Position numbers and translations under genes: made by a program | In this document: positions 20,877 through 63,855 of the stretch, piece by piece | Layout: every line of letters starts with the position of its first letter | Numbering within the stretch: position 1 is the first letter of the stretch | Notes under the pieces: generated by a model | The model's input: the letters and a program-made list of their open reading frames with translations, nothing else | Databases searched by the model: none | Told to the model about the DNA's origin: nothing | IMG/VR virus record: IMGVR_UViG_3300045988_165521 | DNA from: a virus | DNA length: 64,000 nucleotides | Reading direction: 5' to 3' (one strand)

Positions 20877-21446
20877 ATGAGTAAGTTAAAGGAACAAATT
20901 CTTATTTTAAGAAGTGATAATAAAAGTTATAATGAAATTGCTAAGATACTTGGATGTAGCAAAAGTATTGTTGGATATTATTGTAATGATATAACTAATA
21001 GTAAACAACGAAAATCTACTTCATTATGACGTAATACACTTAAGGGGAGAATTAAATCTAGACTATGTACTTTTTGTGCTAGAATCTCTCATGGAGGTAG
21101 AAGAATCTCTAATAGAACATGACGTAAACGTTTAAGGAGATATATTGAACATTTTCAAAATAGAGGAACGAAGAGTTTAAATAAAATTAAGACTTTAGAT
21201 ATTATTAATAAATTTGGTACAAAAACAAAGTGCTATTTAACAGGTACTCCTATAGATTTAGAAAAAGATAATTATTGTTTTGATCATATAGTTCCTGTTT
21301 CTAAAGGTGGAACAAATGATTTGTCAAATTTAGGTATTACAATTCCTATTGCTAATTATTCTAAATCTGATTTAACAGTAGAAGAATATTTAGAATTATG
21401 TAAGAAAGTACTTGAACATTATGGTTATACCGTTAATAAGATATAA
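20877..21446 (+). CDS. HNH homing endonuclease (free-standing; 2 in-frame TGA)
   Basis: A single frame with TGA at 21027 and 21120. DHIVPVSKGGTNDLSNL...N motif. Confidence 0.75.
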
Positions 21447-21448
21447 CA

Positions 21449-21613
21449 ATGCAACATAGTCCTTATAAGATAAAGTATGAGCAATATTTTGTAATGTATT
21501 CTGATAGATTAAAAAGAAGGTATTATCAAGGAAAGCCTTGGGCAGAAGCAGGCTCTTATACAGTTTGAAATCTTCATTATATTAATAAAACTTATCGAAT
21601 TGTTATACAATAG
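21449..21613 (+). CDS. hypothetical small protein (1 in-frame TGA)
   Basis: ATG 21449 to TAG 21611. Confidence 0.35.
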
Positions 21614-21645
21614 GCATCTAGAGTAATCTAGGTGCCTTTATTTTT
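21612..21645 (+). terminator. Rho-independent terminator
   Basis: AGGCATCTAG-AGTAAT-CTAGGTGCCT followed by TTATTTTT. Confidence 0.7.
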
Positions 21646-21660
21646 AAAACGAAGAATATT

Positions 21661-21744
21661 ATGGTAATTGGAGTATTAATTTTAGGAACATTAGTTGCTT
21701 TGGATAGTTTGGCAATTATAGAATATTTTATAGATAAAAAGTAA
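21661..21744 (+). CDS. 27-aa single-TM peptide
   Basis: MVIGVLILGTLVALDSLAIIEYFIDKK. Confidence 0.3.
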   Translation: MVIGVLILGTLVALDSLAIIEYFIDKK

Positions 21745-21745
21745 A

Positions 21746-22351
21746 ATGAAATCAATTTTAATAAAAATTGGGATATTAGCTGTTTTAGGTTTAACAATAT
21801 TTTTCATGGGACAAAGAATTCATGATTTAAATATTGCATTAGATAATTCAGTTAATAACGAAAAGGCTTATGCTGCAGAAAATTCTGGTTTAAAAGAAAG
21901 TAATCGAGTATTTAAATTAACTATTGAACAATTAGATTATTATAATGATTCACTTATGTTAGCTATGAAAAAAATAGCTAATGATAATGGTATTAAAGAT
22001 AAAAAAATTAAGTCTTTACAGTATCAATTAGAACATTATTCTAAAAGAGATACTTTAATTCTTAGAGATACTGTATTTAAAGATCCTAATTTTGTTCTTG
22101 ATACATGTATTATTGATCGTTGGAATAAGAGCTGTTTACACTTACAATATCCTGGTACAATTGCTCTAAGTAATGAGTATGAAAATGAAAAGTTTATTAC
22201 TTTAAGTTCTCATCGAGAACCTATTAAACCTCGTAAATGGTTTTTACCTAGATGGTTTACTAAGAAACAAACTGTAGTAGAGGTTTTAGTAGTTGATGAA
22301 AACCCTTATGTTAAAACAAAACAACAAAGATTTGTTGAAATTATAGACTAA
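21746..22351 (+). CDS. hypothetical membrane-anchored coiled-coil protein
   Basis: N-terminal TM helix; 201 aa. Confidence 0.5.
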   Translation: MKSILIKIGILAVLGLTIFFMGQRIHDLNIALDNSVNNEKAYAAENSGLKESNRVFKLTIEQLDYYNDSLMLAMKKIANDNGIKDKKIKSLQYQLEHYSKRDTLILRDTVFKDPNFVLDTCIIDRWNKSCLHLQYPGTIALSNEYENEKFITLSSHREPIKPRKWFLPRWFTKKQTVVEVLVVDENPYVKTKQQRFVEIID

Positions 22352-23114: not shown

Positions 23115-23341
23115 GACAGCAGGTATATCTTTGTAAAACAAAGTTAAAATTTAAAGATGGAGATTTTGTAAACGCAAGTGTACCTAATTTGAATCCTTTT
23201 ACTGTAACTTCTATTCGGATTCATCAACATCCTAATTCTCAGAGTATTTATTATCGCTTAGATGGCTTACAAAAATCTATTCGAGAAGATCAGATTTTTG
23301 AATCTATTGAAGCAGCTAAAAAATTTTGTCATGAGCAATAG
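23081..23341 (+). CDS. hypothetical protein
   Basis: 86-aa ORF. Confidence 0.45.
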   Translation: MQITVNTKYEIGQQVYLCKTKLKFKDGDFVNASVPNLNPFTVTSIRIHQHPNSQSIYYRLDGLQKSIREDQIFESIEAAKKFCHEQ

Positions 23342-23840
23342 TTTTAATCATCAATCTTTTTTAAAAGCAGGAGCTGAAAAAGAACAAGAATTTGCTAATT
23401 TATTAGTTCTTAGGAATGGTGGGGTCATTTCACATTCTGATAGAAGTACAGATATTAAAGATCATATAGATCTTTTCTGAACTAAAGACAATAAAACATT
23501 TTCTTTTGATGTTAAGGGCTTAAAAAAGAGTAATTGATCAGATATTAATACCGATAGTAGTATTCATTGGATTGAAATTAGTAATGTAAGAGGAAATCCA
23601 GGCTGGTTATACGGAAAAGCAGATTATATTGCTTTTGAGACAGATAAAGAATGGCTTTTAGTAAAAAGACGTAAGTTAATTGATTTAATCAATTCGAAAG
23701 TAACAGATACTGCAGTTAAAAATACTAAAGAATTATATACTTACTATCAAAGATATGGTAAAAAAGATATAATTGTTAAGGTTTTAACTAAAGATTTAGC
23801 TGAAATAGCTTCAAAAACTATTAGTAAATGAGAAAATTAA
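23331..23840 (+). CDS. PD-(D/E)XK-like nuclease (in-frame TGA codons)
   Basis: A single frame through 2 internal TGA codons. DHIDLFW...FSFDVKGLKK resembles a D...D/ExK motif. A terminal TGA sits in an ATGA overlap with mgsA, with a TAA 3 codons later. Confidence 0.45.
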
Positions 23841-24870: not shown

Positions 24871-25212
24871 TTGAAGAAGTGAGAAGTTAATATTCCAATT
24901 TTTGATAAAGATATTTTAGTTATTCAGGATGAAGATATAAGTAAGATCACATCTTATTTAGAAGATATGTATTCTGTGCATCTTGAGTACCAATCTAATC
25001 TAACAGATGGTATTACTTGTATACTACCTAACGGATTAATTGTTATTGGATTAACCAATAACGATCCATATATTGCTTTACATGAATGTACTCATGCTGT
25101 ATTTGCTTTAAAAGAGATAATAGGATGATCAGATAACGATGAAGAAGTATTTTGTTATACTTTAGAATGAGTCTATAAGCATGTAACAAAGTATATAAAT
25201 TCTCATGATTAG
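24871..25212 (+). CDS. HExxH-motif protein (putative metallopeptidase-like; start uncertain; in-frame TGA)
   Basis: Frame open from 24865 to TAG 25210. HECTHAV motif. TGA at 24880 plus two more. Confidence 0.35.
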
Positions 25213-25645
25213 AGTATATACAGATGGTAGTTATAAACCAACATTAAATCAAGGTGGATATTCTTCAGTTATAACTGAAGATGGAAAAGTAATTAAAATT
25301 CTTTATCAAGGTTTTAAAAATACTACTAATAATAGACAAGAACTAAAAGGAGTTTTAGAAGCCTTAAAGTATTTTAAAACTCCTCAAGTTCTTGAAATTT
25401 ATTCTGATTCAAGCTATGTAGTTAGTAGTATAAATAATGGCCATGTGGCTAGATGAATCGAAGAAAAAGACGATTCAAAGAAAAATATGGATTTATGAAC
25501 TGAAATCTACAAGTTAATTCAGTTTCATAAAGTTACATTTGTCTGAGTAAAAGGACATAATAACAATGAATTTAATGAACTTGCAGATTTATATGCACAA
25601 CATGCTGCAGAATGTTTAGAATTAACAGAAGATGAAAAGTTTTAA
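25205..25645 (+). CDS. rnhA: ribonuclease HI (3 in-frame TGA)
   Basis: YTDGS...NNRQEL...YSDSSYV...W...DLW...VxWVKGH..N..NE.AD. TGA at 25454, 25496 and 25544 occupy positions that are Trp in RNase HI. Confidence 0.85.
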
Positions 25646-28600: not shown

Positions 28601-29824
28601 ATGAACAGAACGGAACGTCAAAAGCTTGCTATTAGACGTTGATTAGATAGTAATGGGATAGGCACAATTGTTGCTGCAACTGGATTTGGTAAGACCTATA
28701 TGACTTGCATGTTGATAAAGGCACTATATAATAAAAATCCTAGACTATCTGTATTAATTGGAGTTCCTACAGAGGTTCTAAAAGAACAATGACTTAGAGA
28801 GTTGGCTAAAAACCAACTCTTTTCTGTCTGTAAGGTAGAGATATTTAACACTATTGTTAAAAATCAGTATACAGTTGATTTATTTGTAATTGATGAAATT
28901 CATTGCGCATGTAGTGAAAATAACATCAATATGTTTAAAGCTGTAAAATATCGTTATTTTTTAGGATTAACTGCTACATTTGAGAGATTAGACGGAAAAG
29001 AAGACCGATTATCTGAGTTTACTTATGTTTGTGATCGTATAAATATAAAGGAAGCAGTTGATAATAATTGATTATCTGATTATAGAAATTATAAAGTTTT
29101 AATTGATGTAGACTTATCTCTATATCATGAATGAAATCAGAAATTTCAAAATCTATTTTCTATATTTAATTTTGAATTTAATACAGTAATGAATTGTATT
29201 AGTCGTCCTGGTTTTGCAAGTAAATATGCAAAGAAAACAGGATGAAGTGAATCTCAAGTTAAAGGATTTGCAGCAGCTTGAATGAGAATGTTAAGAAAAC
29301 GTAAGTCTTTTGTAATGTCTCATCCTAAGAAATTTGAAATAGCAGATAAGATATTAGATGCAAGAAGTAATAAAAAAGCAATTACTTTTTCAGCTACTAT
29401 TAAAGATGCAGAATATTTTAAGAAACGAGGATATGTTTTACATAGTAAACAGAAAAAGAAGGAAAATAATACCATTATAGAAAGTTTTAACCAACAAACT
29501 ATAGGTGTATTAAGTACTTCAAAATCTTGCGACGCAGGTGTAGATATAAAAGGGTTAAGTGTTGGAATTATATTAAGTGGAGATAGTTCAAAGACAAGGA
29601 CTACGCAGAGGATTGGAAGAATTTGTCGATTCGAACAAGGTAAACTCGCAGAAATGTTTACACTAGTTATTAAGGGAACTATAGAAGAAACCTGATATAA
29701 TAACTCTAATTCAAACCAACAGTATATAACTATTGATGAATCACAATTAGATATAGTGTTAAGTGGAAAGGAGATTTCTACTAGACCAAAAAAAGGCATA
29801 ATAGATATAGAACATAGATTTTAA
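28601..29824 (+). CDS. SF2 (DEAD/DEAH-like) helicase (7 in-frame TGA)
   Basis: ATGFGKT, DEIH, TATFER and QRIGR motifs. Track ORFs 28802 and 29282 lie in the same frame. Confidence 0.7.
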
Positions 29825-29870
29825 TAAATAGATCTAACGTAGTACGTTTGTTTATTTTTTATCGTATTAT

Positions 29871-30476
29871 ATGGAGTTAGATACGATTCTTAATATTATG
29901 GCTAAATATAAACTAACAGCTGATGAGTTACTGTTAGTTTATTTAACGTTTATTGCTCAAACAGAAAATGGAGATCCTAAAATAAATAGGAACTATTTTC
30001 GAAGGTGATATGAAGGGGGCGGCAAAGAAAGATTACGAGAATTATTCAATTCACTAAAAGAGAAAGGAGTAATCAGGAAAAACTATAACCCAAGTACTTA
30101 TGATCCTGATGAAATTGAATTTAATCAGAATTTTATAAAACAATATTTTAAACTTTCTGGAGAGCTTGGCATGGAATTAGAGGATGCTTATCCAACTAAT
30201 TTATACTTTAATGGGAAAACAGTTAGTTTAAAAAATATTGCAAAGAAATTCTTAAATATGTCAGAATTCTACTTCTGATATTCCTCTACTATTGGACATA
30301 GTATTGAAAAGCATCGTGAAATATTAGAGATACTAGAATGAGCTAAATCTAAAGATCTTGTACAAGTTTCTATGATTGAATTTGTTTCCAGTCAAAAATG
30401 GAAAGAGTTTAAAGAAATGCGAGATAAAGGAATTAATGGCAAAGTTAGTACTGAACAACTTTACGATACTGCTTAA
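29871..30476 (+). CDS. hypothetical protein (3 in-frame TGA)
   Basis: ATG 29871 to TAA 30474. Confidence 0.45.
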
Positions 30477-31600
30477 TGTCTATTGTAGATGAATTATATT
30501 CTGAAATTGACAATGGTAGAGAAGGTAGAAACTTAGGTTTAAAAACTGGATTGCCAAAGTTGGATTGATATACAGGCGGATTCCAAAAAGGAGTTTACAA
30601 ATTAATATTTGGACAAAGTGGTTCAGGTAAAAGTTCATATGTAATATATTCTGATTTATATCGTATATTACGAGATTATCCAGATAGAGATATTGTACAT
30701 GTATATTTTAGTCTGGAAATGAGTTCGAAAGTTTTACTTGCTAAATTGCTTAATCTATATATATATGATACTTATGGAATAGAAATTTCTTATATGACAC
30801 TAATGTCCGTTCGAGAAAAACTATCTGATAAATATTATAAGTATATTCAAGAGTCCAGAGTATGACTAAACTCAATCATACATAAGCTTATTATCTTTGA
30901 TAAACAGCTAAGTTCTAATACTTTCTATGGTAATATGAAAGAACTTCTAAAACAATGAGGTACTTTTCAAGATATTGATGAAGGTAGAAGAAATATTTAT
31001 ATTCCAAGTAATCCCGATAAAATAATAAATGTAATAATTGATCATGCTGGTTTATTAACTCCAGTTGATGGTAGAACTAAAAAACAGGAAATTGATCAAA
31101 CCTCGCAATACTGCGTTTATTTTAGAGAAAAGTGTGGAATATCTATTGACTTTATTATGCAAGAAAATAGAAACACAAGTGATGTAAATAGATTAAAAAT
31201 GGATCTTGCAGAGCCAACCCTTGATGATGTTAAGGATTCTGGTAATGCAGGTAATGACTGTAATATTTGTGTTGCAGTATATAATCCTATAAAACATCAA
31301 CGTAGTACTTATAGAGGATATACTATCATTAATAAAGAATATCCAGAAGAATCTTTAGGTTCTGCTATGCGTGGATTAATATTATTAAAACATCGATTTG
31401 GAGTTGCAAATAAAGTTTTTTGTACTGGCTTTCAAGGTAGTTTAGGACGATTTGAGGAACTTCCTGATCCAGGAAGTATTAATTATGAAGTATATCAATC
31501 TTGAAAAGATGAGAAGTTAGAAGATGAAATAACAAAAGATACAGCTGCAAAAGATGCAGAAGAAAAAGATAGCTTACAAAAACCAATATTCAAATTTTAA
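30476..31600 (+). CDS. DnaB-like replicative helicase (RecA-fold domain; 4 in-frame TGA)
   Basis: Walker A GQSGSGKS and Walker B-like IIDHAG. Track ORF 31157 is in frame. Confidence 0.6.
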
Positions 31601-31602
31601 AT

Positions 31603-33479
31603 ATGGCTATCACATTACCAACAAACAAAATTCCTGCAGAAACTCAGGACCCAAGAAATTTAATTATTTTCTCAAAACCAAAATACGGTGGCTTTCGCCG
31701 TGTATTATAGTAATATAATACTTATGAATGGGCAAAAACGGTGAATTCTAAAAATTTGCCATATATTTACATTCTTAGTTGGAATTTCCAGAATCTTTAT
31801 GTAAATTTGCATTATTAATTTTTAAACTAAAATAATTATTATGCAAATTAAAAGACAAAAATATTCGTATGAATTATTACAAGAGTGTTCAAATTATTTA
31901 AATACACACTCTCTTAAGGAAACAGCTATACACTATAACCTTAGTTATAAAACAATGATAAATGGGTTAATTAGGTTTGGATTTTATACTCCAACTAGAA
32001 AACACAAAATAACTAAGAACAACTGCTATAATCAAAATTTCTTTAGTAAAATTGATTCTCATGATAAAGCATACTTTTTAGGATTTTTAATGGCAGATGG
32101 GTATATTTGTACAACTCCTTACAATAAACAAATAGGAATTGGGATTCAGACAAAAGATAAATATATATTAGAATACTATAAAAATTTAATAGGTAAAAAA
32201 TTAAATATAAAACAATATAAAAATTCTAGTAAACTAACTATTACTAGTACTATAATGTATAGTGATCTAACTAAATTAGGATTTATAGAAAATAAATCTC
32301 ATAATGACTATCATTTTCCAGATATTCCTGATGAATTTAAATCATCTTTCATTTGTGGATATTTTGATGGAGATGGGTGTATAACTATAAAATCTACAGG
32401 ATTTAGTGTATGTTCAATATGTTGTAATTCTAAAATATTCTTAGAAGATTTAAAATCTATATTGGCAAAATATAACATACTATGTAGACCTATCTGTAAA
32501 GAAATAAAAAATAGAAAAAATTCAATATATGTTTTATATTTATCAGGAAGATCCAACCAATTAAAATTTAAGGATTTTATATATAAGAGCGTTAATGTTT
32601 ATCTTGTACGTAAATATGATAAATTTATGAAAATACCGTGCTAACTGTTGTAATAATATATAATGGTAGTGTAACGCGTAGGAAGTGAACCTGTTATACA
32701 GAATATAATCTTCCCAAGAGTGTCCATTATCCTTATGGGATAAAAATGTACGCTGAACTATAAGGAAACTTATAGAAGTAGAGATAAAAAGCTCTACGAT
32801 AACAAAATTGAAAAGCACAGCTTGTGCTAATCTTCCTGGAGCATTATGTATCGACCTTGAAGGGGGTGGATATGATTATATTGATGCTGTAAAGGTAAAA
32901 GCATCTTCTGTTAAAGATTTAAAAGAAATTTGTGCTGCAATTAAGGAAGCTAAATATCCTTATAAGTTTATTGTATTGGATACAATTACTAGACTTGAAG
33001 AAATGGTTAAACCATTAGCTTTAAAGTTATATTTAAATAGTCCTGCAGGACAAAAGTTTACAGGAGATGACGTACTTGATGCACCAATGGGAGCAGGATA
33101 TAGCGCTCTTCGTAAGGCATTAGAGATGGTTATTGATATGGTATCTAAATGTGCACCTAATATTATTCTTATTTGTCATACAAAGGATTCAGCAATCGGT
33201 AATACTGATATGACTGCAAAGACTATTGACTTATTTGGAAAAGCAGGTAGAATTCTTGCTTCAAAGTCAGATGCTATTGGTTATTTAGATAGAGATGAAG
33301 ATTCAAATACTATTCTAAGTTTTAATACAAATGATAAATTTGTAGAATGTGGTGCTAGACCAGAACATTTACGAAATGCAGATGTAGTATTAGGAGAAAT
33401 GAAGGAAGATGGAAATATTGAATTTCATTGGGAAAGAATTTATCCTTCACTTTTAAATCCTGTAGAAGTTAATATATAA
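31603..33479 (+). CDS. Sak4-like/RecA-fold ATPase, split by a group I intron: join(31603..31689,32811..33479)
   Basis: Exon 1 ends ...IIFSKPKYG and exon 2 starts KSTACANL, so the join restores Walker A G-KS/T. Confidence 0.65.
31802..31809 (+). promoter_or_regulatory. TAnnTTTG box (TAAATTTG) upstream of the LAGLIDADG ORF
   Basis: 32 nt upstream of ATG 31841. The -33 element is imperfect. Confidence 0.35.
31841..32644 (+). CDS. LAGLIDADG homing endonuclease (double-motif)
   Basis: YFLGFLMADGYI and FICGYFDGDGCI. Confidence 0.85.
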   Translation: MQIKRQKYSYELLQECSNYLNTHSLKETAIHYNLSYKTMINGLIRFGFYTPTRKHKITKNNCYNQNFFSKIDSHDKAYFLGFLMADGYICTTPYNKQIGIGIQTKDKYILEYYKNLIGKKLNIKQYKNSSKLTITSTIMYSDLTKLGFIENKSHNDYHFPDIPDEFKSSFICGYFDGDGCITIKSTGFSVCSICCNSKIFLEDLKSILAKYNILCRPICKEIKNRKNSIYVLYLSGRSNQLKFKDFIYKSVNVYLVRKYDKFMKIPC

Positions 33480-33489
33480 TCTAAGGATT

Positions 33490-33945
33490 ATGCTAAAGGT
33501 ATCTTTTGAATTTGACGAAGAATCGAAGGCTGTTACAAATGTTAAAGTTGTTAAAGTGCCTTCAAAATATGATAATATAGATTTACCAATTGTAGAGATA
33601 GGAGATAGTAAGTTAATTATGTCTCCTAAAGCCGTTAGTTTATTATCTGCACAATGCGGAGATCGGATAGCAGTTAATTATATCCAAAAAAGTAACGAGC
33701 TTACAATCCCAGTTATCGGTAAAGCTGAAGTATTTTCAGATCCTGAAAATGGGAACAAATTAACAAAAAGTAATACAGTCTCTTTTAAAGGGACTCAAAA
33801 AACAATTTTATCTAAATATGGTCAACTCTTTAAAATAGAGGAATGTAGACCTGGTATGTTTAAAATGATTAAGATTGATGAATCAGATCTTTCTAAAGCT
33901 GATACCGATTTAGATACAGAAAATTCAGATTTATTAAAAATTTAA
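33490..33945 (+). CDS. hypothetical protein
   Basis: 151-aa ORF. Confidence 0.5.
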   Translation: MLKVSFEFDEESKAVTNVKVVKVPSKYDNIDLPIVEIGDSKLIMSPKAVSLLSAQCGDRIAVNYIQKSNELTIPVIGKAEVFSDPENGNKLTKSNTVSFKGTQKTILSKYGQLFKIEECRPGMFKMIKIDESDLSKADTDLDTENSDLLKI

Positions 33946-33957
33946 AATTATAAGAAT

Positions 33958-34623
33958 ATGTCAATGTTTGATTTTAGTGTAGCAAAGAATGCAAATCAAG
34001 TAACTTCTACTTTCCTTCGTGGAGGAATCCATAATGTAACCTATAAAGGTATTGAATGAGTAGCTAGTCAGAGTGAAGGTAATTCTGATGCTTTTGTTTT
34101 GTTATTTGAAACAAAGGACGGTATCCAGCATCGAGAAACTATTTTTGATCCAAGTAATATAAGTAATTGTACTCAGAGAGCTACAACTCAGTATGGAGAA
34201 AATCCATCTGAAATGGAAAACTTTATGGTTAAGATTACTCAAATCATTAATGCTCTTAATCCTGAATTAGGTGCAAAAATTGCTGCAGGAGAAAAGATTG
34301 AAGTAAGTAGCTTTAAGGCTCTTGCTAAATATTTAAAGGAAAACTTAGCAAGTTCTGTTGGTAAGGAAACTCAAATCAAGTTAATTCCTTATAAAGGTTT
34401 TGCTAATATGCCTAAGTATGTTGCATCAGTAGGTAAAGATGGAGTAGTTCGTAGTAAAACAAAAGTTATTGGTGAAGATTTAACTTTAACTGCTAGAGAA
34501 AAGACTGATATTGAGAATGCTAACTCTGCACAACCTACTAACATGAAAGAACGGGATAAGGATTTAGACGATCTTAAGGAAACGTTTAATGTAAAAGGCT
34601 CAGAAGACGACTTGCCATTCTAA
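33958..34623 (+). CDS. possible ssDNA-binding protein (1 in-frame TGA)
   Basis: Acidic C-terminal tip ...EDDLPF resembles the SSB tail. It sits within the replication gene cluster. Confidence 0.4.
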
Positions 34624-34645
34624 AAAATAATATAGTTAAATTTTA

Positions 34646-44242: not shown

Positions 44243-44243
44243 T

Positions 44244-50824: not shown

Positions 50825-51078
50825 AATTATTGAAATTCGGAGCATCTTATTGTGCTCCATGTAGAGCTATGGCTCCTATTTTAGAAGAATTAAAATCTAA
50901 AATTGATATACAAGATATAGACGTAGACGAAGCAGATCCTGTAGTACTTACTAATTATAAGATTAGAAATATTCCTGTATTAGTCTTATTAAAAGATGAT
51001 AAAGAAGTTTGAAGACATGTTGGAAGTATTTCAAAATCTGACTTAGAAAAAGAAATTGAAAAATATGAAGCTAATTAA
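50818..51078 (+). CDS. thioredoxin (1 in-frame TGA)
   Basis: FGASYCAPCRAMAP CxxC site, and IRNIPVLVLLKD. Confidence 0.7.
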
Positions 51079-53168
51079 ACCTTATTTTGAAATTATAGAA
51101 CAGGAATCTGGACTTGAAGGTATTTATAAACAAATTGAACTCGCAGGAAGAACTTGTTATAAATCAGAAGATAAAATAACTCCTGATTCTGCTAAAGGAT
51201 TTGTCGATAGAATGATCAAATCTGGTCATGGCGCTATGCTAGAACATGGTACTGTATATTTAAAAGCTGATTCTGAATTTTATAATCCTTTTATTCAACC
51301 AGAAGACGGAGAGGAAGAAGAATACAATGATTTATTTAAATATGGCGATAATAACTATTCGGTTTGTCATGAACAAAGAAGTGTAAATGGAAATACGATT
51401 TATGTCACCACTAATCTTAGAGTATTAGTAGAAAATAACTGGCTTGATGATCTAAAATATCTCTGTGAACCTACTGAATATCATGAAAAACGAATTACAG
51501 TAAAGTTTATTTGTGATCGTGGTGTATCTCATGAATTTGTAAGACATAGAGTATTCTCTTTTGCTCAGGAATCTACCCGTCAAGAAACAATGGCGGCTTA
51601 AATAAGTAATTATTTATGCATAACCCAGTGAATTGCTGGAAGGCTAAAATTTATTAAACTTTTCTACAAGTTTGGATATATCCAAATTTATCATTAACTT
51701 TGTTACAGTAATAAATATAAAATTTTTAAGCTATGAGAAAAATGGATATTAACGTAGGTGATAAATTTGGAGATTGGACTGTAACAAATATAAATGTTCT
51801 ATCAAAGAATAAAAGTAGATATGTATTATGTCAGTGTAAATGTGGCTATATGGGAGAAGTTAATGCCTCAGCCCTTAGAACTGGAAGGAGTTCTAGCTGT
51901 AAATCCTGTGCCAAAAGGAAAAATACCACAATTTTAAAAGTAGGAAGTAAATACAAACATTGGACTATACTAGAAGGTCCAATATACAAAAATTCTACTG
52001 CTTATTACAAAGTTAGATGTGATTGTGGGACTGAAACCTATAAGTTACCTATAGAACTTCTTTATAAAGATAGGGACTTTCAATGTGAAAAATGTGCTCA
52101 TAAAGAGAATATGGAAAATATTAGAAAGAAAAATGGAGAAGTTGGAGAACTTACTAAAACTGAATATACTAGGCTTAAGAGGTCTGCTGAAAAGAGAGCT
52201 TATGTTTTTGAGGTTTCTATAGAATACTTATGGAATCTATTTCAAGAACAAAAACAAATTTGTGCTATTACTGGGGATTATATCCCTAATATAGAAGAAG
52301 CTTCTCTTGATAGAATAGACTCCTCTAAAGGGTATATTGAAGGTAATGTTCAATGGGTAACTTATCAAGCTAACTTAAGTAAACATGTTATGACAATGGA
52401 ACAATTATACGAGTTTTGTAGAAAAGTATTAAATCATGCTAATCAGCAGCCAAGCCAGAGGTTAACAACTCTGGAAGGTTCAGAGACTAATTGATGAAAC
52501 TATGTCTAAAATAATTTTTGAATGTCCTGTATTGCAGGAATTTTGGGACAAATATATAGCCAATAGAGATTGGAATAAAACTTGTAAAGAGATTAGTACA
52601 ATTCTTGATGGCTTAGAGTATTTTAGTGTAGAATATAATTCAAACACGAGTGCTGGACATCCTTTATAGGATGATGATATAGTCCGATACTCTGAGGAAA
52701 CTCAGAGAGTTCAAGATAAAGAGCTTGAACATTAACTAATTGTACTGTAATTATAGCAAAGATAAGTTTGGAAGTGAGCTTACTTTTATTATTCCTTATT
52801 GGACAAATATTCCAGAAGGACAAAGTTATTGGCATGATGGCATTGGGTATCGCGTAGGAGCAGATATTCAAAATAAAGATTTTGGATATATTGAGAAGTC
52901 TCCAAACTATTTTAATTTCTTATCTTCTTTAGAAGAATCAGAAAAATGTTATCTTAGACTATTAAATGAAGGATGGGTTCCTCAACAAGCTCGTTCTATA
53001 CTTCCAAATTCTCTCAAAACAGAGTTAGTAATGACTGGAACTCTTGAACAATGGAAAGGATTCTTTAAGTTACGTAGTCCATTATATGGAGCAATAGGAG
53101 CTCATCCTCAAGCAGCAGAACTAGCAGATAAACTGTATATACAGTTTAAGGAGAAAAATTATATTTAA
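51065..53168 (+). CDS. thyX: flavin-dependent thymidylate synthase, split by a group I intron: join(51065..51580,52743..53168)
   Basis: Exon 1 ends ...RHRVFSFAQESTR and exon 2 starts YCNYSK..., so the join restores the ThyX RHR-x7-8-S-x-R-Y signature. Confidence 0.85.
51581..52742 (+). mobile_element. Group I intron (same family as 36839 and 55102) with an HNH gene
   Basis: Shared core motifs at 51629, 52441, 52644 and 52676. The 5' exon ends in T and the intron ends ...CTAATTG. P1 is only about 4 bp by eye (weaker). Confidence 0.7.
51733..52494 (+). CDS. HNH-type homing endonuclease (intron-encoded)
   Basis: Zn-finger CxxC pairs, then SLDRIDSSKGYIEGNVQWVTYQANLSK. The 3' end of the ORF runs into the intron core element AATCAGCAGCCAAGC. 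Confidence 0.7.
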   Translation: MRKMDINVGDKFGDWTVTNINVLSKNKSRYVLCQCKCGYMGEVNASALRTGRSSSCKSCAKRKNTTILKVGSKYKHWTILEGPIYKNSTAYYKVRCDCGTETYKLPIELLYKDRDFQCEKCAHKENMENIRKKNGEVGELTKTEYTRLKRSAEKRAYVFEVSIEYLWNLFQEQKQICAITGDYIPNIEEASLDRIDSSKGYIEGNVQWVTYQANLSKHVMTMEQLYEFCRKVLNHANQQPSQRLTTLEGSETN

Positions 53169-54606: not shown

Positions 54607-56931
54607 ATGAAGAAAAATATAAATACAATTAATATTGAAGAATTAAAAACATTAGCTAGTTATATTATTGATAATAATAAACGATTATATAATGAGCATA
54701 AAAAGACTACTGCAATTGAAGTAGTAGGTGAATCTGGTTTAGGTAAAACTTCTGCTATCATTCAGTTAGCTCAAGAAAGAGGAATGGACTGTATTAAACT
54801 TAATCTTTCTCAGTTAGAGGAATTAGGTGATCTTATTGGTTTTCCAATTAAAGAGTATTATGTTTGTACAGAGCGTCCTAGACTTGATGATGATGGAATG
54901 CCTGTTGTAGAAAATGAAATAGTAATTAAGGATGAGGAATGTCTTTGGGTATCTGCAGATGTACTAGATTCTTATATTGCAGAGGGTTATAGAATTAAAG
55001 ATAATATATCTCGAATGGGATACGCTCTTCCTGCATGGGTTCCTACTTCTCGAAATGAAAATGGCACAATTTTAATTCTTGATGACTTTAATCGTGCGGA
55101 TTAAAAAATATATTGTAAAGTTTTGTTTCCCTGAATAAATTTAGTATCTTTGATATAAATTTAAAAATATGGAAAAACTAACATTACAAAAGATTAAAGT
55201 TTATAAAAAAGTTTGTGGAATTTATAAAATAAAGATCCACGATAAAGAATATATAGGAAGTTCAAAAAATATTCAGCATAGATTAAGACAACATCTAATT
55301 ACTTTAAAACAAAATAAACATCACAATCATACTATGCAAAATTTGTATAACAAGTATGGCATTGATAATATTTATTTTGAAGTTATAGAAACTTGTCTTG
55401 AGGAAAATAGAATTAGTAGAGAAAAATACTATATAAATAGTATTAAACCTTATATAAATCATATTTTAGACCCTGAGAATATCATTAGAGATAAAGAATA
55501 TAAACATAGAATAAGTATCTCTAAAAAGAAATATTATGAGACACATTCTCCAGTTAATATAAAAATGGTATATCAGTATAGTTTAGAAGGAAAATATCTT
55601 CAAAGTTATAAATCGATAACAGATGCAGCTATATCTACTAACCAAGATACTACTGCAATATGTAGTGTATGTAATAATCGTAGTTATACTGCTGGTGGAT
55701 ATAGATGATCATTTGAATTAAAAGAAAATCTTTCTAAACTAAAAAAGAAATATAAGAAAATACCTGTTATTCAATATTCACTTGATAATGTTTTTATTAA
55801 AGAGTGAGATTCTAAAACAGATGCTGAAAAAGAACTAAAAATTTGTAATATATCTCGCGCTATAAGAAAAAATCTTACTGCAGGAGGATATAAATGAAAG
55901 TATAAAATCTAGAGGTCCGCATAAAATAGCGTGAATTGCTGGAAAAGCCTGAGGAGGTCAATCAGCAGCTAAGCTAATTAGTAATAATTAGAAAGTTCAA
56001 CGACTAGTACATGGAGTCCAGGAATGGATGGTAAAGTACCACGAGTGCGCTACACTATTTATATAGTGAAGATATAGTCTGAACTACGTTATAACCTAAG
56101 AAAAGACGTAGAAGTATAGGATAAAGAGCCTATACGATAACAATAATGCCTAGATTTATACAAGCTACCATGGAGCTTATTGACCGAGGAGAATATATTT
56201 CATGGAGTCTTCCTCCTAATTGTACAATTATATTAACATCAAATCCTGATAATGGTGATTATAATGTTAATTCTATGGATAATGCCCAAAAGACTCGATA
56301 TATTAGTTTCGAATTAGGTTTTGATAAAGATGTATGGGCTCGTTGGGCTGAGAAAGAGGGTATTGATGGTCGTTTTATCAATTTCGTATTATCTTATCCT
56401 GAGATTATGAACAAGGAGGGAGGAGTACAAAAAGTTAATCCTCGAAGTTTAGTAACCTTTGCAAATACTATTTCAGGTTTTAAAGATTGGTCAGATACTA
56501 ATACTTTAGGTTTAATTCTTAATATTGCTCAAGGTTGTTTTACTTCTGAAGAAAACGTTATTGGAAACTTATTTACTACATTTATTGCTAATAAGTTAGA
56601 TAAATTAATGGACCCAGATACAATGTTAAATAAAGATTGGGATTATGTTAAAGGAGAATTAGCAAAACAAGTATATGATGGTACTAACTATCGTGCAGAT
56701 ATTGCTGCAGTTTTAACAACTCGATTCTGTAATTTTGTAAATCTATATTTTGATACAAAAGGTAGTAAAACAGAAGTAGCTGTTGATAGAATTCTTAAAA
56801 TTATTGAGCATGATAAGATGTTATTTTCTGAGGATTTGATTTTCAGTTTAATTAAAACTCTCCAAAAAAATCATCCTACAAGATGTAATAAATTATTATT
56901 GAATCCTAAAGTAGCTAGAAAGTTAATATAA
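54607..56931 (+). CDS. AAA+ ATPase (MoxR-like), split by a group I intron: join(54607..55101,56149..56931)
   Basis: Walker A GESGLGKTS. Exon 1 ends ...ILILDDFNRAD and exon 2 starts PRFIQATMELIDRGEY, a continuous Walker B / sensor region. Confidence 0.7.
55122..55152 (+). promoter_or_regulatory. Bacteroidota-type promoter (TTTG-N19-TATCTTTG) inside the intron, for the GIY-YIG ORF
   Basis: TTTG 55122-55125 and TATCTTTG 55145-55152, 17 nt upstream of ATG 55169. Confidence 0.55.
55169..55912 (+). CDS. GIY-YIG homing endonuclease (intron-encoded; 3 in-frame TGA)
   Basis: GIYKIKIHDKEYIGSSKNIQHRLRQH...N...YG motif. The frame continues through TGA to TAG 55910. Confidence 0.75.
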
Positions 56932-56932
56932 T

Positions 56933-58132
56933 ATGTTATTTAATTTAAGTAATACAAAATTAAGAATAGTTGTTTGCGACTATTATAGAAGACAAGGAAA
57001 TAGTAATAATGGTTACTGTTATAACAACATAAGTAACACTTGCCTTGCAGATATGATTGTTGTTTATGATGTTAATGGGAGTAAAAAACATATTGGAGAC
57101 GATTGCTATTATACTAGTCCTTTTTGTGCAGAAAAAGTATTTGGTATGTATTTAGGAGATAGTGATAGTATAGAAACTATCATTTCTTCTAAAACTTTAA
57201 CAAGTTTAGCTGGAGTGAAAAGAGTATATTTTGATCCTAAATCTAAATATCCTCGATTTAAACTAAGCGAAGCTACCACTATAAAACGTAGTTTAACTGC
57301 TGCAAAAGCAGATGTTTGTATATTGCCAAAAGTAGAATATAGTGTATATACGCCTAAATATAGTTCAGGAGGTGCTCCAAGGGATAAAAACATTAAATTA
57401 TATTATTCTCCATCAGAAGATACTTATTATCTAATTGATCATAAACCTGGAGCTTGTTATCAAAGTAGTTCTACTAAAGACTTAAACAACTTTATTAATA
57501 AAGCGATAAATACTAGCTCTTCAGATCCTCTTGAACAGTTTGCTTCAGCAGTAATGGCTGAGGGAATTATTCCTGCAGACTGTACATTATTTTATTCAGG
57601 CAAATGCTGTTTCTTTACAGATAATTCAGAGTATGAGCAAGTTAATAATATTTTAAATAATTATATGAAAGTAATATATGATACAGAATTAGATAAATTT
57701 GTAAGTAATAATTTATCTAATCTTACAGAGGACGATCTTAAATCTTTATCTGGAATGTTAGGTTCTCAAGATCCTACTGTTGTAGGTATGGGTATTAAAT
57801 TACTCTCTGGATATAATATTCCAGATTCAGTTTGTTCTGTAGGTATTCTACTTATGAGTAACTGGAATACTATTACAAGTAATTCTGCTTTTAAAAGTGT
57901 AGGATTTCAACAAATTTTAAATACATTAGGAATTTCTGAAAGAGAGGTTTATAGTGGCATTACTGATAATATTATAAATAAACTTTATAAAAGTAGTACA
58001 AATGATGCAGATAAAGAAAAGGCTAGAAAGATAGTTATAGACAAACTCAAGAAAAGTTTTGAAAAGAAATGGGCTGAACATAAGTCGCAACTTGATGCTA
58101 TACCTATGAACTTCGATTTTACATTAGAATAA
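56933..58132 (+). CDS. hypothetical protein
   Basis: 399-aa ORF with no TGA. Confidence 0.55.
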   Translation: MLFNLSNTKLRIVVCDYYRRQGNSNNGYCYNNISNTCLADMIVVYDVNGSKKHIGDDCYYTSPFCAEKVFGMYLGDSDSIETIISSKTLTSLAGVKRVYFDPKSKYPRFKLSEATTIKRSLTAAKADVCILPKVEYSVYTPKYSSGGAPRDKNIKLYYSPSEDTYYLIDHKPGACYQSSSTKDLNNFINKAINTSSSDPLEQFASAVMAEGIIPADCTLFYSGKCCFFTDNSEYEQVNNILNNYMKVIYDTELDKFVSNNLSNLTEDDLKSLSGMLGSQDPTVVGMGIKLLSGYNIPDSVCSVGILLMSNWNTITSNSAFKSVGFQQILNTLGISEREVYSGITDNIINKLYKSSTNDADKEKARKIVIDKLKKSFEKKWAEHKSQLDAIPMNFDFTLE

Positions 58133-59006: not shown

Positions 59007-59314
59007 TGAATAAAATTATATATAAATATCCTCTAGATTTTACTTATCCTCAAACGATTAAGTTACCTAGTAGTGCAGAAATTTTATATGTTGATAGCCA
59101 AAGAAATACACCTACAATTTGAGCTATAATAGATACAGATGATAAATCAACAATAGAGGTTGATGTTTATATAATTGGTACTGGTCAAGCTTTTGATGCT
59201 AGTAATAAATTATATGTTGGTTCATGTATAACTGAAAACGGACTCTTTGTTTGGCATATATTTATTGATTATTCTAAGAGCGAAAATATAATATTACCAG
59301 GTGTTGATCTTTAA
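59006..59314 (+). CDS. hypothetical protein (1 in-frame TGA)
   Basis: ATG 59006 to TAA 59312. Confidence 0.45.
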
Positions 59315-59340
59315 AAAATAAATTGTTTTACTTCTATGAA

Positions 59341-59420
59341 AAATCCCCTTACTTGCTTAATTGCGAGTAAGGGGATTTCTTTTGCCTCTATCTGCTTATG
59401 CGGATAGAGGTTATTTTTTT
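59341..59420. terminator. Two back-to-back hairpins at the convergence of + and - strand transcription
   Basis: AAATCCCCTTACT-(12 nt)-AGTAAGGGGATTT, then CCTCTATCTGC-TTAT-GCGGATAGAGG plus TTATTTTTTT. T/A-runs lie on both sides. Confidence 0.7.
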
Positions 59421-62400
59421 AATCTAATTTATCTCCAATATACTTAAGATCACTCATAAATCCAAATGTACTTGTAGCTCCTTCCCAGAGATTTTTATCT
59501 CCAGTAATAACAGCTGTACTTTGATTTACAATATTCTTAATAATAGAGTATGCAGGTGGATTTAAGTCTCCTGCAAATTGTGCAACAATATTTTGAATTG
59601 GACCATCTTGAAATGATGTATATAAAGCCATAGCTCCTAAGTGTCCTAATGCTCCTAATTCTTCTTTATTTTCTTCTGAAAGGAATACTGCATATATCAT
59701 CCACATTATTAGACTCATAAATATTAAATCAGTTAAGAATAAATAAAAATTAGCCTTTTTAGTTGGATTAGCTCATAATGCTTTAAATTCATTATAATCC
59801 ATTTTACCTATAGCTTTTAGAAAATCAATCATAGAATAAGCAATACCTTCAATAAATCTTCCTTGCCATTCTACATAAGGAGTAGCTGTTTCTCCTTCTT
59901 TTACATTTGTTTCAAGATCAACTCTTGTAGTAGGTAACCCATTTTCTCCTGTTGATTGAATCATTACATAACGAACTCCATTTTCATCAAATTTTTCTAC
60001 AAACTTACCTTGATCATAAGTTCCAGGTTTAAGAATCCATTGTTCAAGTTTAGCAGAAAGGAATGTACGGAATTGTAACATCATAGCTCCCATAAACATA
60101 CTTTTAGCAAGCATCTGAGTATTTTTATCATAGTGTCCAAAACAAAGTTCTGCAAAAGACTTAATACTTGTTGCTTCTCTAACAGTATAGGCTCTAGGTA
60201 ATGGTTGTCCTTTTTCAATATTTCATCCTTCTTGATTGAATTGCTGTCTATAAGCTTCATATAATCCTTCTTGTCTCTTATAAGCTTCAGAATTTACATC
60301 AGCTCCTGCAGCAGTAAACACATTAAAACGTTTATCCTTCTTAAAGTCATATACTAATTCATCATCTGAATTTAAACTATATGCTTCTCAGCATCCATCA
60401 TGAATCATTTTTGCAATTAATAAGCCCATTCTATGATATACATCAGGAGCTCTATTACAAACATATAACATATCAGAATTAAAGTTCTTAATACCATTAC
60501 GAGATTGACTGAGTTCTTTTTGAACTATGTCGGCGTCCATATTAGCCATACCAAAGTCTGCATTTAAAGCTTCAACTTTTGTTAAAGTAGCAATACGCTT
60601 TGGACTATCTTTAAAGATAATTCCTCAAGCTTCAGCTAAATCCTTTCCAGAAAATTGATCTTTTCCATAAGCATTTGTCATAGCTCTACTAATATGAATT
60701 CACATACCTTGCATCATTTCTCGAAGTCCAGATCTTAAGTTAAGACCTAAAGCAGTAGCAGTAGTAAATTTCTTAATTGCAGCTAAAGTTTTATAAACAG
60801 GTTGTAAACCTTTATCCATAATAGGTTTATTATAGATATTAACTGTTAGATACTTATCAAGAAATTCAAGTAAGTTTTCTGCTTCTTGTCCATACATTGC
60901 TTGATTATACTGTAATGCTATTTTAATTCCTTGAATTTGAGGAATAATATCATTGTATTCTGCTTCTGCAACATATGCATGAATATAGCTTCTTAATAAA
61001 TCTTCGAGTTGAGTTTCAAGACTATTTATTCCATGATTTGATATAATTTGCTCTCGGGTATCATTTCCAATTTTAAATTTGTTATATACTCTTTGCGCAT
61101 CTTTAGCAAGATCAAAATCCTTCATTTGTTCCTCAAACAGCCTTAACATATTAGTAACTTTTTGATACTCCATTTTAAGACCTTCTTTAAAACCTTTATT
61201 ATGGAATTGAGACTTCATAGAACCAATAGTTACAGGAACTTGATAATAAGTTCCGTCTTCTATTGCTTGTTGATAACGTCCAGGATTTCCTTCAAAACGA
61301 AGTTGGTTTACAATTTCTGTAAATGTTTTTATTAACGCTTTTTCTTCTTTAGCTAAAGAACTATCATTAATGTCTTTTAACATAAAATCTTTTGTAATAT
61401 TACCATTTTCATCTCTTCTAAATAGATTATCAAAATATTTTACTTCTCCACCTATTAAACGGTTTTGATCTTTAAATTTATAAAATTCCTTAAATACTTT
61501 TCTAATCTTAGAATCCCAAGCTAATTCTTGTCTACGTATCTTAGTTTCTGTTACTGCAACAATACGTCCAACTTCTTGAGCTGTTAATGAAGGAGAATTA
61601 TTAATACTTGTAATATTAGTTCCTGCGTGAAAACTACCTGTTACACTAACTCATTTTGCAGGGTCTGGTTCAATATAAACTTCATATCCTCTTACTTTGT
61701 TAAGAGCTTTTCCAAGTAACATATAGGAAGTTTGTAAAGGATCATCAAAATTTCATTGCCCAGTATGTATTGCTTTACGCAATCCCTGAGCGTTATCTAG
61801 TTTCCTAAGTTCTTCCATTCTATTTTTTAGAAATTCTCCACCTTTAATAACATCATCGGCACTAAATGTAACAGCTCAATTTCCAATATGTTTTAGTTTT
61901 TCAGGACCACATATATCAGTAATTGTACTTACCACAGATTCAAGAGTTGAACTAAAGTTTGATCTTTTAAGATTTATAGGAACATTGTGTATTCTACATA
62001 ATTCTACAAAGTTATCATATAACTTATCAAAATATTGCTCTGAACCAGTTTGTTGCCAAATATTAATACTTTCAATTTTATTAATTCGATAATTTTCATA
62101 TTTAATAGCATCGCTATTTAGTAATGCCATTACTTTAATTAAGTCAATATTTCCATTTGTCGCAGACATTATTTTATGTTCATCAACATCTCGATTAGCT
62201 ATTGTTGAACCTAAAATATTTGTTCCCTTTTCAAGTTTAACTGTTTGATGAGTAACATTATTTGTAATAGATACTATTTCTAATACTTTATTTTTTGTAA
62301 ATACTAGTAAACCTGCAGAAATAAATGATGGATTATTTTCAAATTGCCATTCTCCTTCAATATATTTTTCAATATGTCTACGTAAAAAGTCTCCTTTATA

Positions 62401-63855
62401 TGGATTATCCTTTGCAATATCGTTAATATCCATCGATCCCTGCTGGACATTTATAATATCCTGAGCAATATCAGCTAACTCATTTCCACGTCGCTCATTA
62501 ATACTTTTTATATAGTCCTCTAACTTTTTATCAAGTTCTTCTTCCGTTTGAGCATATTCTCACCTACTTTTTACAGAATCTTTAGGTTTATATTCATTTC
62601 AGAATCTATATTTTCCATATCCTGCTTCAGGAGCAGAAGAACTAATATATTGAACGATTTTTTCTTTATAAAACTTAAAGTTTGCGTTCTTTCTTTGAAC
62701 TTTTGAAGATAGTTCATAATTAGGAAAGAACTTACTCATAGGTTCTTCAATAGTTTTAATAATATCAAATGAATCTGTTAAACGTCTAATAGGAATAATT
62801 TCTCTAACTCTATCATAATATTTTCCAATTGTATTAGATGGATTTACTATAATATTATCAGAATCAATGTATACACTCGATAAATTATCAATTTGAGATA
62901 AATTATCATTTCCTGAATTATCTTTTTTATAATCAATATCAAGTTTAACAGGAATAATTCCTACTGTAGCTACATTAATACCTTGTTGTTCTAACATAGC
63001 TTTATAGAAGTTTAACTGATATGCTGCACCTAATTTTTTAGTAGAAGCTCATACATTATTTAATAATGCATTTCTAGTTTCATCTCAAGCTCCTACTGCT
63101 TTTCGAGATACTTTAAAATCTCGAATATGAGCATTACCATTTTTATCTACAATTAATAAGTCAATTCTACCATTAATTGAATTTAATCCTGCTGCTTTAT
63201 AAGGTTCAGCTATATCTTCAGAAACAATTGGTATTTCAGTAATGAATTTACAGTCTCTTCCAAATTTTTCTTTAGTGTCTTCTATAAAATCTCTTAATTG
63301 GTTTTGTAACAATGATACTTGCTCTTCATTTAATAATTTTGGAGTATATTCTATTTCAGGATTAATTACAGATTCAAAAAGTTTATGTACTTCTGTACCA
63401 TAATCGGTTAGTTGAGTTCAACTCTTTTGTAGATCCTCCAAATATTTATCTGCTTCGTTCGAAGTCATGCCTTTTTTCATTAGTCTTTCTTTTTCTCTTT
63501 TCAGATACTCTTCAAGATTAAATTTTGTAACTAATACTTTAGCTAAATCAAAAGGATCTCCATAGGTTGTAAGGAACTTAGTAACACCCATTGATTTATC
63601 TAATTTTAGAGCAATTTCCTTTTCTCCGTCTTCATTTGTTATTTCAAACTCTGTAGCAAGTGATTTATATTTTTTTATAGCTTCACTTATTTTATCTACA
63701 GTGACTTGTTGTTGATCTACTTGTAGTGTTGCATCAACATTATCAACTACCATATTTTGAGCGTAGTTGTCAAGAAACGTGTCCAACTCCATTTCGGAGT
63801 TGAACACTTTCTTTTCACCGTTTATCGTAATTTCGTATGTACAATTTCTTGCCAT
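59419..63855 (-). CDS. large hypothetical protein, 1478 codons with 13 in-frame TGA (possible virion/cargo protein; weak N-terminal PD-(D/E)XK-like motif)
   Basis: All seven minus-strand track ORFs share one frame. I scanned the gaps triplet by triplet and found only TGA (59773, 60223, 60388, 60625, 60700, 61651, 61753, 61876, 62560, 62599, 63049, 63085, 63418), no TAA or TAG. TAA stop at 59419-59421. Confidence 0.7.

Follow-up and report, generated by a model that had tools for sequence, protein, structure and literature searches.

How does a phage translate genes that are interrupted by TGA when standard tRNA finders return no tRNA able to read that codon? This question is raised by a stretch of 64,000 nucleotides (nt) from IMG/VR virus record IMGVR_UViG_3300045988_165521, which we analyzed as a whole and refer to as the window (64 kb, GC = 29%). 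A preliminary description made from the letters of this DNA had proposed that TGA is a sense codon, almost certainly for Trp, in most genes to the right of 20.9 kb. Our analyses make it quite likely that the phage, which is of the Zeta crAss-like type, reads UGA as Trp after an early phase in the standard code, by means of an intron-split tRNA(UCA). The most likely UGA reader is the putative split tRNA(UCA) gene at 20425-20862, which an intron in the anticodon loop would hide from tRNA finders. The window was extended by a walk through related contigs (~36 kb to the left, 7 kb to the right and a further 9 kb in relatives); ~107 kb of a genome of ~173 kb was covered, with a late region of ~60 kb lying outside this coverage. 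Related loci from other contigs are given L-numbers (L006, L094, L307 etc.), and the coordinates of the main features are collected in Table 1.

A recount of in-frame TGA codons reproduced every coordinate in the preliminary description to the base. The class II ribonucleotide reductase NrdJ was interrupted at 39715, 40351, 40399 and 41287, the family B DNA polymerase (PolB) at 48156, 48189, 48543 and 48753, RNase H at 25454, 25496 and 25544, and the SF2 helicase by seven TGA codons, with no internal TAA or TAG in any of the four. The minus-strand frame at the right end of the window carried thirteen TGA codons and zero TAA or TAG. Right of 20877 we counted 81 TGA codons in 62 called genes, where about 80 had been estimated, and 100 TGG codons were used beside them. 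When genes were called again, coverage of 20877-63855 rose from 0.70 under translation table 11 (code 11) to 0.93 under table 4 (code 4), compared with 0.72 under code 15 (TAG as sense), which served as a control; mean open reading frame (ORF) length increased from 143 to 216 amino acids (aa) between codes 11 and 4. Annotating 20.9-64 kb in the standard code yields fragments, in line with the proposal that such annotation is invalid, and this region should be redone with TGA = Trp. The long open frames did not arise by chance, because TAA and TAG make up 8.7% of off-frame triplets in the same genes: for frames of 649, 747 and 1478 codons free of both, P ranged from 2e-26 to 4e-59 (~4e-59 for the 1478-codon frame). 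With TGA read through, whole-domain Pfam matches were obtained for RNase_H (5-140 of 141), Ribonuc_red_lgC (1-523 of 523), DnaB_C (1-254 of 255) and DNA_ligase_A_M (1-204 of 204), and matches over whole domains were likewise seen for the SF2 helicase, the Toprim primase and a dUTPase.

Analysis of homolog alignments revealed that TGA columns are enriched for Trp. At 57 TGA sites aligned with relatives of <70% identity, the majority codon was TGG at 20, TGA at 13 and Phe at 8. Trp or TGA was thus the majority at 33 of the 57, compared with a background of 0.96% for W (TGG) at other aligned positions. PolB residue 251 was W in 24/24 standard-code relatives and residue 63 in 18/24, the other six having Phe or Tyr; TGA site 141 of the primase was W in 69/69 relatives, and five of the seven TGA sites in the SF2 helicase were W in all three standard-code relatives. 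Alignments with solved structures matched the RNase H TGA codons to W104 and W120 of the E. coli family (motifs DLW and WVKGH), in agreement with the proposal that they fall at family Trp positions, and matched one NrdJ TGA to a conserved W. For NrdJ these PDB alignments were used in place of a protein search: a homolog search of 5.8 billion proteins returned only the same phage clade and, because all matches came from that clade, provided no independent test for Trp. TGA and TGG were also interchanged among close relatives. PolB of the window and six close relatives always contained eight TGA and TGG codons in total, with swaps at the same columns, and five relatives (PolB 86-89% identical) were compared over those genes of the 37-61 kb region that could be aligned: of the TGA codons that had changed, 23/39 were replaced by TGG, and of the changed TGG codons 24/34 were replaced by TGA. 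Trp content with both codons counted was uniform across the early, middle and late blocks (1.2-1.35%). The bases around TGA resembled those around TGG, with no special context, and context-dependent read-through was ruled out on this basis. Homolog columns, TGG swaps, structures, even Trp content and the absence of a special context thus point to TGA as an ordinary Trp codon; four independent tests agree, and the assignment of TGA to Trp in the middle and late genes is supported.

The candidate reader lies in a 509-nt gap between the last early gene, which ends at 20368, and the first TGA-containing gene, which starts at 20877. In intron mode ARAGORN flagged 20425-20863; its call, tRNA-Ala(cgc) i(36,344), has the right place and the wrong splice site, and was replaced by a junction set by group I rules. 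The exon halves are TAGTGTAATGGTAGCACAGCGGTCTT ... CAAAACCGT, and the unspliced junction sequences are GCGGTCTTCGAATTGG and GTGGTAAGCAAAACC. The predicted spliced junction is GCGGUCUU|CAAAACCGU, spanned by the 30-mer GGTAGCACAGCGGTCTTCAAAACCGTATTG. The intervening 346 nt have the features of a group I intron and are predicted to be self-splicing. The six bases of the joined exons, CUU|CAA, all pair with a guide, UUGGAG (20462-20467), which places a U.G pair at the 5' splice site; the final base of the intron is G (20803). An R element (20716-20731, GUAGAGACUAAAUGCC) and an S element (20750-20759, GAUAUAGUCC) build P7 (20719-25 with 20754-59), and P3 is formed by 20487-92 with 20728-33. Compensatory changes between two alleles ~85% identical were found in P2, P3, P9, the acceptor stem and the T stem; P3 contained two such pairs, with GUGGCA/UGCCAC changing to AUAGCA/UGCUAU and AUGGCA/UGCCAU in other alleles. 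P7 never varies and is therefore supported by its sequence alone. RNAalifold analysis of six sequences independently paired the acceptor and anticodon stems across the intron, with two-sided changes in 17/119 pairs, and the split gene was present in all 13 IMG/VR contigs of the species. The HNH gene that adjoins it was found in 3/4 loci with the tRNA allele of the window and in 0/9 others, and was absent from the intronless locus L307; it is a separate mobile element, in a setting reminiscent of collaborative homing (PMC3984707).

In-silico removal of 20458-20803 produced a cognate UCA tRNA: the spliced RNA is 92 nt long (92-93 nt across all three allele types) and was called tRNA(tca) by ARAGORN. 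A search with the predicted spliced anticodon arm showed that uninterrupted tRNA(UCA) genes are numerous on other phage contigs. The intronless homologs were contiguous across the predicted junction, and one of them (L309) was 90% identical over all 93 nt. An intact ortholog was identified at the same genomic position in L307, which is on the same contig as L013, a TGA-recoded phage with a PolB 86% identical to that of the window. This tRNA is located past the tRNA block and directly upstream of homologs of 21746-22351, 23262-23840 and RNase H, lacks both the intron and the HNH gene, and scored 57 bits on the Rfam general tRNA model with the UCA arm as its anticodon arm. In an alignment of 18 sequences that included the spliced form from the window, 98.2% pairing was observed over five helices, and 17 of the 25 pairs showed two-sided changes, a number that 0/500 shuffles reached. 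The loop of the variable arm carries UCCAAA, the same sequence as U33-A38 of the tRNA-Trp anticodon loop; without its UCA arm, the window tRNA would be a canonical 71-nt tRNA-Trp(CCA). Since the 18 sequences were picked for this motif, its invariance among them is circular; independent of that choice, UCCAAA was present in 19 of 31 distinct long-arm UCA tRNAs retrieved, the stems of which differ and covary. We infer that the variable arm could keep the tRNA recognisable to tryptophanyl-tRNA synthetase (TrpRS), and the arm may also be a trace of descent from a tRNA-Trp gene.

ARAGORN and Rfam identified 13 tRNA genes in the window and found no tRNA with a tca anticodon there; in the ~107 kb, which hold ~27 tRNA genes for all 20 amino acids and a transfer-messenger RNA (tmRNA), ARAGORN likewise found none, and the Rfam scan of the window added none. 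The alternative that survives best, although we regard it as unlikely, is that UGA is read by tRNA-Trp(CCA), of the phage or of the host, through C-A wobble with release factor 2 (RF2) weakened, the split gene being a relic. The D stem of the phage tRNA-Trp(CCA) has U11-A24, a pair that also occurs in the Hirsh UGA suppressor and in B. subtilis tRNA-Trp. Opal-recoded relatives have also been published without a detectable suppressor, with none in 4/5 opal-recoded genomes of the polB/polA subclade (PMC12386605, Table 1), and a suppressor was detectable in only 35% of TGA-recoded phages in another survey (10.1101/2021.08.26.457843). However, the phage tRNA-Trp(CCA), 100% conserved in 15/19 related loci, is absent from the rest, including L006 and L094/L110, strains that keep their TGA-rich genes; it is therefore unlikely to be an essential UGA reader. 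Its anticodon stem is an ordinary one of 5 bp, and it was rejected both as a Hirsh-type and as a short-stem UGA reader. The compensatory changes in the tRNA stems of the split gene, together with the intact guide in both alleles, argue for functional selection rather than a relic.

The early block differs from the rest of the window in its use of TGA. Its 34 non-endonuclease genes contained 61 TGG and 4 TGA codons, two homing-endonuclease ORFs being left out of this count, and three of the four TGA codons were at the C-terminal end; coverage of the block was 0.80 under code 11 and 0.87 under code 4. The TGA codons at 4113, 4367 and 9030 are probably real stops. In MgtC homologs (distant relatives of ~40% identity) a TGA occurs at aa 128-132 and the alignments end there; for gene 8673-9032, no informative relatives were found. 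The proposal that genes end in TAA or TAG therefore needs a correction, as TGA, which is never a terminator in table 4, probably terminates these three early genes. The phage follows code 4 in its middle and late genes only, and the early block conforms to the standard code. The TGA share of Trp codons rose from 0.13 in the early block to 0.42 in the middle block and 0.65 in the late gene; in the next ORF upstream of the late gene, seen in L149, it was 74% (20 TGA, 7 TGG).

This distribution also bears on whether the host itself uses code 4, with the phage merely following it and no switch taking place, a reading to which we give very little credence. The low GC content is compatible with such a host, and the predicted hosts of related phages include Erysipelotrichaceae (PMC12386605). 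In contrast, early genes avoid sense TGA, a homolog has a TAG stop where one early gene has TGA, and TGA accounts for 42% of Trp codons in the middle genes compared with 80-90% in code-4 genomes (10.1101/2022.06.29.495998); the phage also has a UCA tRNA of its own, and its nearest PolB relatives end 9/36 genes in TGA.

Within the middle block TGA was present in 29/60 genes and was strongly clustered by gene (chi-square 93 vs 51 expected, p < 5e-5); because its use is so uneven, the description of TGA as a sense codon in most genes was too strong. All Trp codons were TGA in the SF2 helicase, the DnaB-like helicase, the ligase and RNase H, as were four of five in the primase. PolB and NrdJ showed mixed usage (Table 1), and a set of accessory enzymes used TGG only (ferritin-like protein, dGTP diphosphohydrolase, PD-(D/E)XK nuclease, RecD-like helicase, kinase, ThyX and AAA ATPase). 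Genes free of TGA mostly remain so in close relatives. The homing-endonuclease ORFs were TGA-rich, with 16 TGA vs 7 TGG. Neighbouring stretches displayed bimodal use (28601-35674 vs 36197-39071, 42857-44242 and 56146-58132) that was mostly kept in close relatives, and timing or recent acquisition may be its cause.

A non-Trp meaning of TGA, whether Gly (as in code 25), Ser (through a long-arm tRNA charged by seryl-tRNA synthetase, SerRS) or selenocysteine, is highly improbable. The UCA anticodon and long arm of the spliced tRNA lead ARAGORN to label it tRNA-SeC, and the long variable arm and G73 are features that tRNA-Ser shares. Against this, TGA columns were mostly W, TGA or aromatic; Gly was the majority at 1/57 sites, in a single aligned sequence (n=1), and Ser at 0/57, which excludes both Gly (code 25) and Ser. 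TGA interchanges with TGG among close relatives and occurs at Trp positions. The predicted tRNA also departs from tRNA-Sec, with 7 bp instead of 8 in the acceptor stem and 4 instead of 6 in the D stem, and the general tRNA model was top-ranked in Rfam. Finally, that the TGA-broken frames are pseudogenes or independent short proteins with TGA a stop throughout, for which the standard-code ORF track is the sole support, is refuted by family matches that run full length with TGA read through, by long frames without TAA or TAG (P as low as 4e-59), by the residues in TGA columns and by the retention of these frames across relatives, and we give it practically no weight.

Under the preferred reading, in which the split tRNA(UCA) decodes UGA as Trp, early genes would be translated under the host's standard code and the suppressor precursor would be transcribed from the end of the early block. 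The precursor would then splice itself, joining ...CUU to CAAA... and creating a tRNA with anticodon UCA and G73, which TrpRS would charge with Trp. This tRNA could subsequently decode UGA in the replication genes (42% of Trp codons) and, more heavily, in the late genes (65-74%). Several points weigh against this reading. Both splicing and charging of the tRNA(UCA) are predicted from sequence alone, and the Rfam model Intron_gpI gave no match on 20300-21500 at E values up to 10; the assignment of the intron to group I therefore rests on the guide, the terminal G and the core elements. An intact second suppressor may lie in the ~60 kb late region beyond our coverage. A genome of 173,322 bp, c815351, has been listed with a TCA suppressor found by standard tools (PMC12386605), and IMG/VR contig 3300045988_171911, also 173,322 bp, carries the split gene (L215); therefore, either there is a second intact copy beyond the coverage or the two records differ. 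In addition, a tRNA with G73 and such a long arm might in principle be recognised by SerRS, and RF2 may compete for UGA. A wider proposal, that the code switch is gated by RNA self-splicing, that Trp identity is conferred by a decoy loop and that split suppressors explain many suppressor-less phages, is tentative and on balance doubtful; if true, removal of the intron from the anticodon loop could time or tune the onset of TGA decoding.

Table 1. Location of the split tRNA gene, the early-block stops and the TGA-containing genes in the window.
Feature	Coordinates	Strand	Basis or codon content
Early block, tRNA and accessory genes, standard-code compatible	1-20368	+	codon counts, coverage
tRNA-Trp, anticodon CCA, reads TGG	1406-1478	+	ARAGORN, Rfam
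TGA, probable stop of MgtC-like gene 3735-4115	4113-4115	+	overlaps next ATG as ATGA
TGA, probable stop of gene 4112-4369	4367-4369	+	TAG at equivalent codon in 62%-identical homolog (L092, L108)
TGA, probable stop of gene 8673-9032	9030-9032	+	at 81% of code-4 frame, low-complexity tail after
Exon 1 of predicted tRNA(UCA): acceptor 5' strand, D arm, stem GCGGU, C32-U33-U34	20425-20457	+	manual parse; RNAalifold pairing to exon 2
Predicted group I intron of 346 nt without ORF, separating anticodon positions 34 and 35	20458-20803	+	guide, core elements
Exon 2 of predicted tRNA(UCA): C35-A36-A37-A38, stem ACCGU, long variable arm (loop CUCCAAA), T arm, acceptor 3' strand, G73	20804-20862	+	
HNH homing endonuclease, free-standing	20877-21446	+	2 TGA, 0 TGG; Pfam HNH_4
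RNase HI	25205-25645	+	3 TGA, 0 TGG
SF2 helicase	28601-29824	+	7 TGA, 0 TGG
DnaB-like helicase	30476-31600	+	4 TGA, 0 TGG
Toprim primase	34646-35674	+	4 TGA, 1 TGG
Class II ribonucleotide reductase NrdJ	39667-41910	+	4 TGA, 8 TGG
ATP-dependent DNA ligase	44217-45449	+	2 TGA, 0 TGG
Family B DNA polymerase	48003-49952	+	4 TGA, 4 TGG; motif DVASLYPS in translation
1478-aa late (virion-type) protein	59419-63855	-	13 TGA, 7 TGG

Judged from its proteins and genome features, the phage is a member of the published opal-recoded Zeta crAss-like group, with a genome of ~173 kb. IMG/VR contigs of the species and its relatives measure 163-179 kb, and the Zeta-type traits found were a genome within 155-190 kb, a tRNA block (~27 genes) and many introns, the split genes counted toward the latter being ThyX, an AAA ATPase and the tRNA. 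The only link to Zeta by protein identity comes from one 99-aa protein, which is 92% identical to a protein of the named Zeta genome OHFV01000001. PolB is 60-64% identical to annotated Suoliviridae crAss-like phage polymerases, and GenBank phage relatives of the 1478-aa protein are only 25% identical. As far as 59.3 kb the genes run on the plus strand, and a single minus-strand gene, which encodes this protein, comes after them. The phage is widespread in public assemblies, one window protein being indexed in 2568 blocks on contigs of up to 173 kb. Its nearest GenBank relative by PolB is crAssphage cr4_1 (L001, NC_055893), which shows another type of recoding, with 18 in-frame TAG codons in one late gene; there, TGA terminates 9/36 replication-side genes and PolB has no in-frame TGA.

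The gene types of the early block comprise tRNA, MgtC-like, YqeY, NUDIX, methyltransferase, DnaJ, HD, IMPDH-like and MoxR-VWA genes. At its end (14351-20368), an HD-domain protein, an IMPDH/GMP-reductase-like protein, and a MoxR-type AAA ATPase with a 648-aa VWA protein are all free of TGA. Several of its tRNA genes are unusual. The tRNA called Ser(GGA) by ARAGORN at 1868-1940 is 73 nt long, lacks a long variable arm, has the loop AAGGAGU with A for U at position 33, scored 57 bits on the Rfam tRNA model and is kept in all strains. The tRNA-Arg(UCU) at 13995-14082 is 88 nt long with a long variable arm and measures 75 nt in L094 (16600-16674); an HNH-like ORF with two TGA codons (13406-14017) overlaps its 5' end. 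The tRNA-Gly(UCC) at 4627-4698 (Rfam, 51.5 bits) was missed by ARAGORN and is followed by an HNH-like ORF with three TGA codons (4721-5449). The tRNA-Trp(CCA)/tRNA-Ala pair (window 1041-1565) is deleted in L006 and replaced in L094 (6150-6794), where the substitute sequence holds a second tRNA-like gene with a UCC anticodon. A tRNA-like sequence at L167 7594-7665, also seen in L159, L162 and L163, has a good acceptor stem and good D and T arms, but its anticodon stem is 3 bp long and its loop, GUUGUG, has six nt. The Ser(GGA) tRNA, this 6-nt-loop tRNA and the UCC tRNA of L094 were rejected as suppressors, as none contains UCA. In the distant relatives L098 (13258-13332), L099 and L100, on contigs of 111-204 kb, a homolog of window gene 5477-6346 is followed 3 kb downstream by an ordinary 75-nt tRNA(UCA) without long arm or intron. 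ARAGORN predicted a tmRNA with tag peptide ANNIFSRIINKVETALFGDIEGVALIAA in L102 (7137-7515, ~9 kb left of window position 1), L104 and L110, and the related phages L115 and L128 have their own versions.

Two protein-coding genes of the window also appear to be split. The N-terminal part of ThyX (Pfam Thy1) ends just past the RHR...S motif and is followed by a homing-endonuclease-like ORF with two TGA codons and then by a TGA-free ORF that may be a second exon (51065-51601, 51733-52509 and 52740-53168). An AAA-type ATPase is apparently present as two TGA-free halves round a GIY-YIG-like endonuclease ORF, all three Trp codons of which are TGA (54607-55104, 55169-55912 and 56146-56931). A LAGLIDADG homing endonuclease (31841-32644) between the DnaB-like gene and the next ORF has zero Trp codons.

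That opal recoding occurs in crAss-like phages was rightly noted in the preliminary description (PMC7886860, PMC12386605), and because the phage belongs to the published opal-recoded Zeta group the recoding itself was already known. Surveys of recoded phages found a suppressor in ~1/3 of TGA-recoded genomes and invoked host suppressors or "undetectable" tRNAs (10.1101/2021.08.26.457843, PMC7886860, PMC12386605), and the Zeta papers describe a mismatch between recoding and detected suppressor tRNAs (PMC7886860, PMC12386605). The split tRNA is a concrete candidate answer to the missing suppressor for a very common human-gut lineage. It would connect recoding with intron density, both of them oddities of the Zeta crAss-like phages, and suggests that annotation of intron-rich phages should include intron-aware tRNA searches. 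Our literature search returned no report of an intron-split suppressor tRNA or of a Trp anticodon-loop copy in a variable arm; a suppressor gene with a group I intron in its anticodon loop at a code boundary appears to be new here, and the loop copy is likewise without a match in the literature searched. The combination of a UCA anticodon with this loop copy is a natural design that may interest those working on tRNA identity and genetic-code engineering.

Compared with known systems, the phage shares with code 4 of Mycoplasma and Spiroplasma the reading of UGA as Trp via a tRNA with anticodon UCA, but here TGG is commoner, early genes probably retain TGA as a stop and the tRNA is long-armed. 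With tRNA-Sec and the allo-tRNAs, the predicted tRNA has in common the UCA anticodon, the long variable arm and G73; it differs in its 7/5 stems, 4-bp D stem and variable loop UCCAAA, and in serving ~90 Trp-position codons in the window. The closest parallel to its intron is found in cyanobacterial tRNA-Leu(UAA), where the insertion is past CUU, between positions 34 and 35, as in the phage tRNA. That intron, like the one predicted here, belongs to the bacterial anticodon-loop group I introns, with no ORF and an anticodon stem paired between exons, and has U.G at the 5' splice site and a terminal G (PMC3984707). In the phage, in contrast, the host gene is a putative nonsense-suppressor tRNA, the intron is longer (341-360 nt) and is missed by the Rfam model, and a free-standing HNH gene adjoins the intron-containing gene in some strains, like 'collaborative homing'.

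The arrangement also resembles the code-switch model (Borges et al., 10.1101/2021.08.26.457843; Mgcod, 10.1101/2022.06.29.495998), with an early block readable in the standard code that encodes the suppressor, here between 20368 and 20877, upstream of the recoded genes. The TGA-rich homing endonucleases are a further likeness, as Borges et al. noted the same for the intron endonuclease of another phage. In contrast to that model, the switch point precedes the replication genes and not just the structural or lysis genes; RNase H, the helicases, the primase, the ligase, PolB and NrdJ all carry TGA. The suppressor is also predicted to depend on splicing of its RNA, and neither an RF1 nor a TrpRS gene turned up in the parts of the genome examined. 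The nearest comparison is with the Zeta crAss-like phages themselves (Yutin et al. 2021, PMC7886860; 'Echekviridae', PMC12386605), which are alike in contigs of 163-179 kb, a terminal tRNA block, genes often split by introns and homing endonucleases, and TGA at Trp positions of helicase, polymerase and virion genes. The present phage differs from these reports in that a candidate suppressor was found, split by a predicted intron, and in that recoding covers the replication genes and not mainly the late genes.

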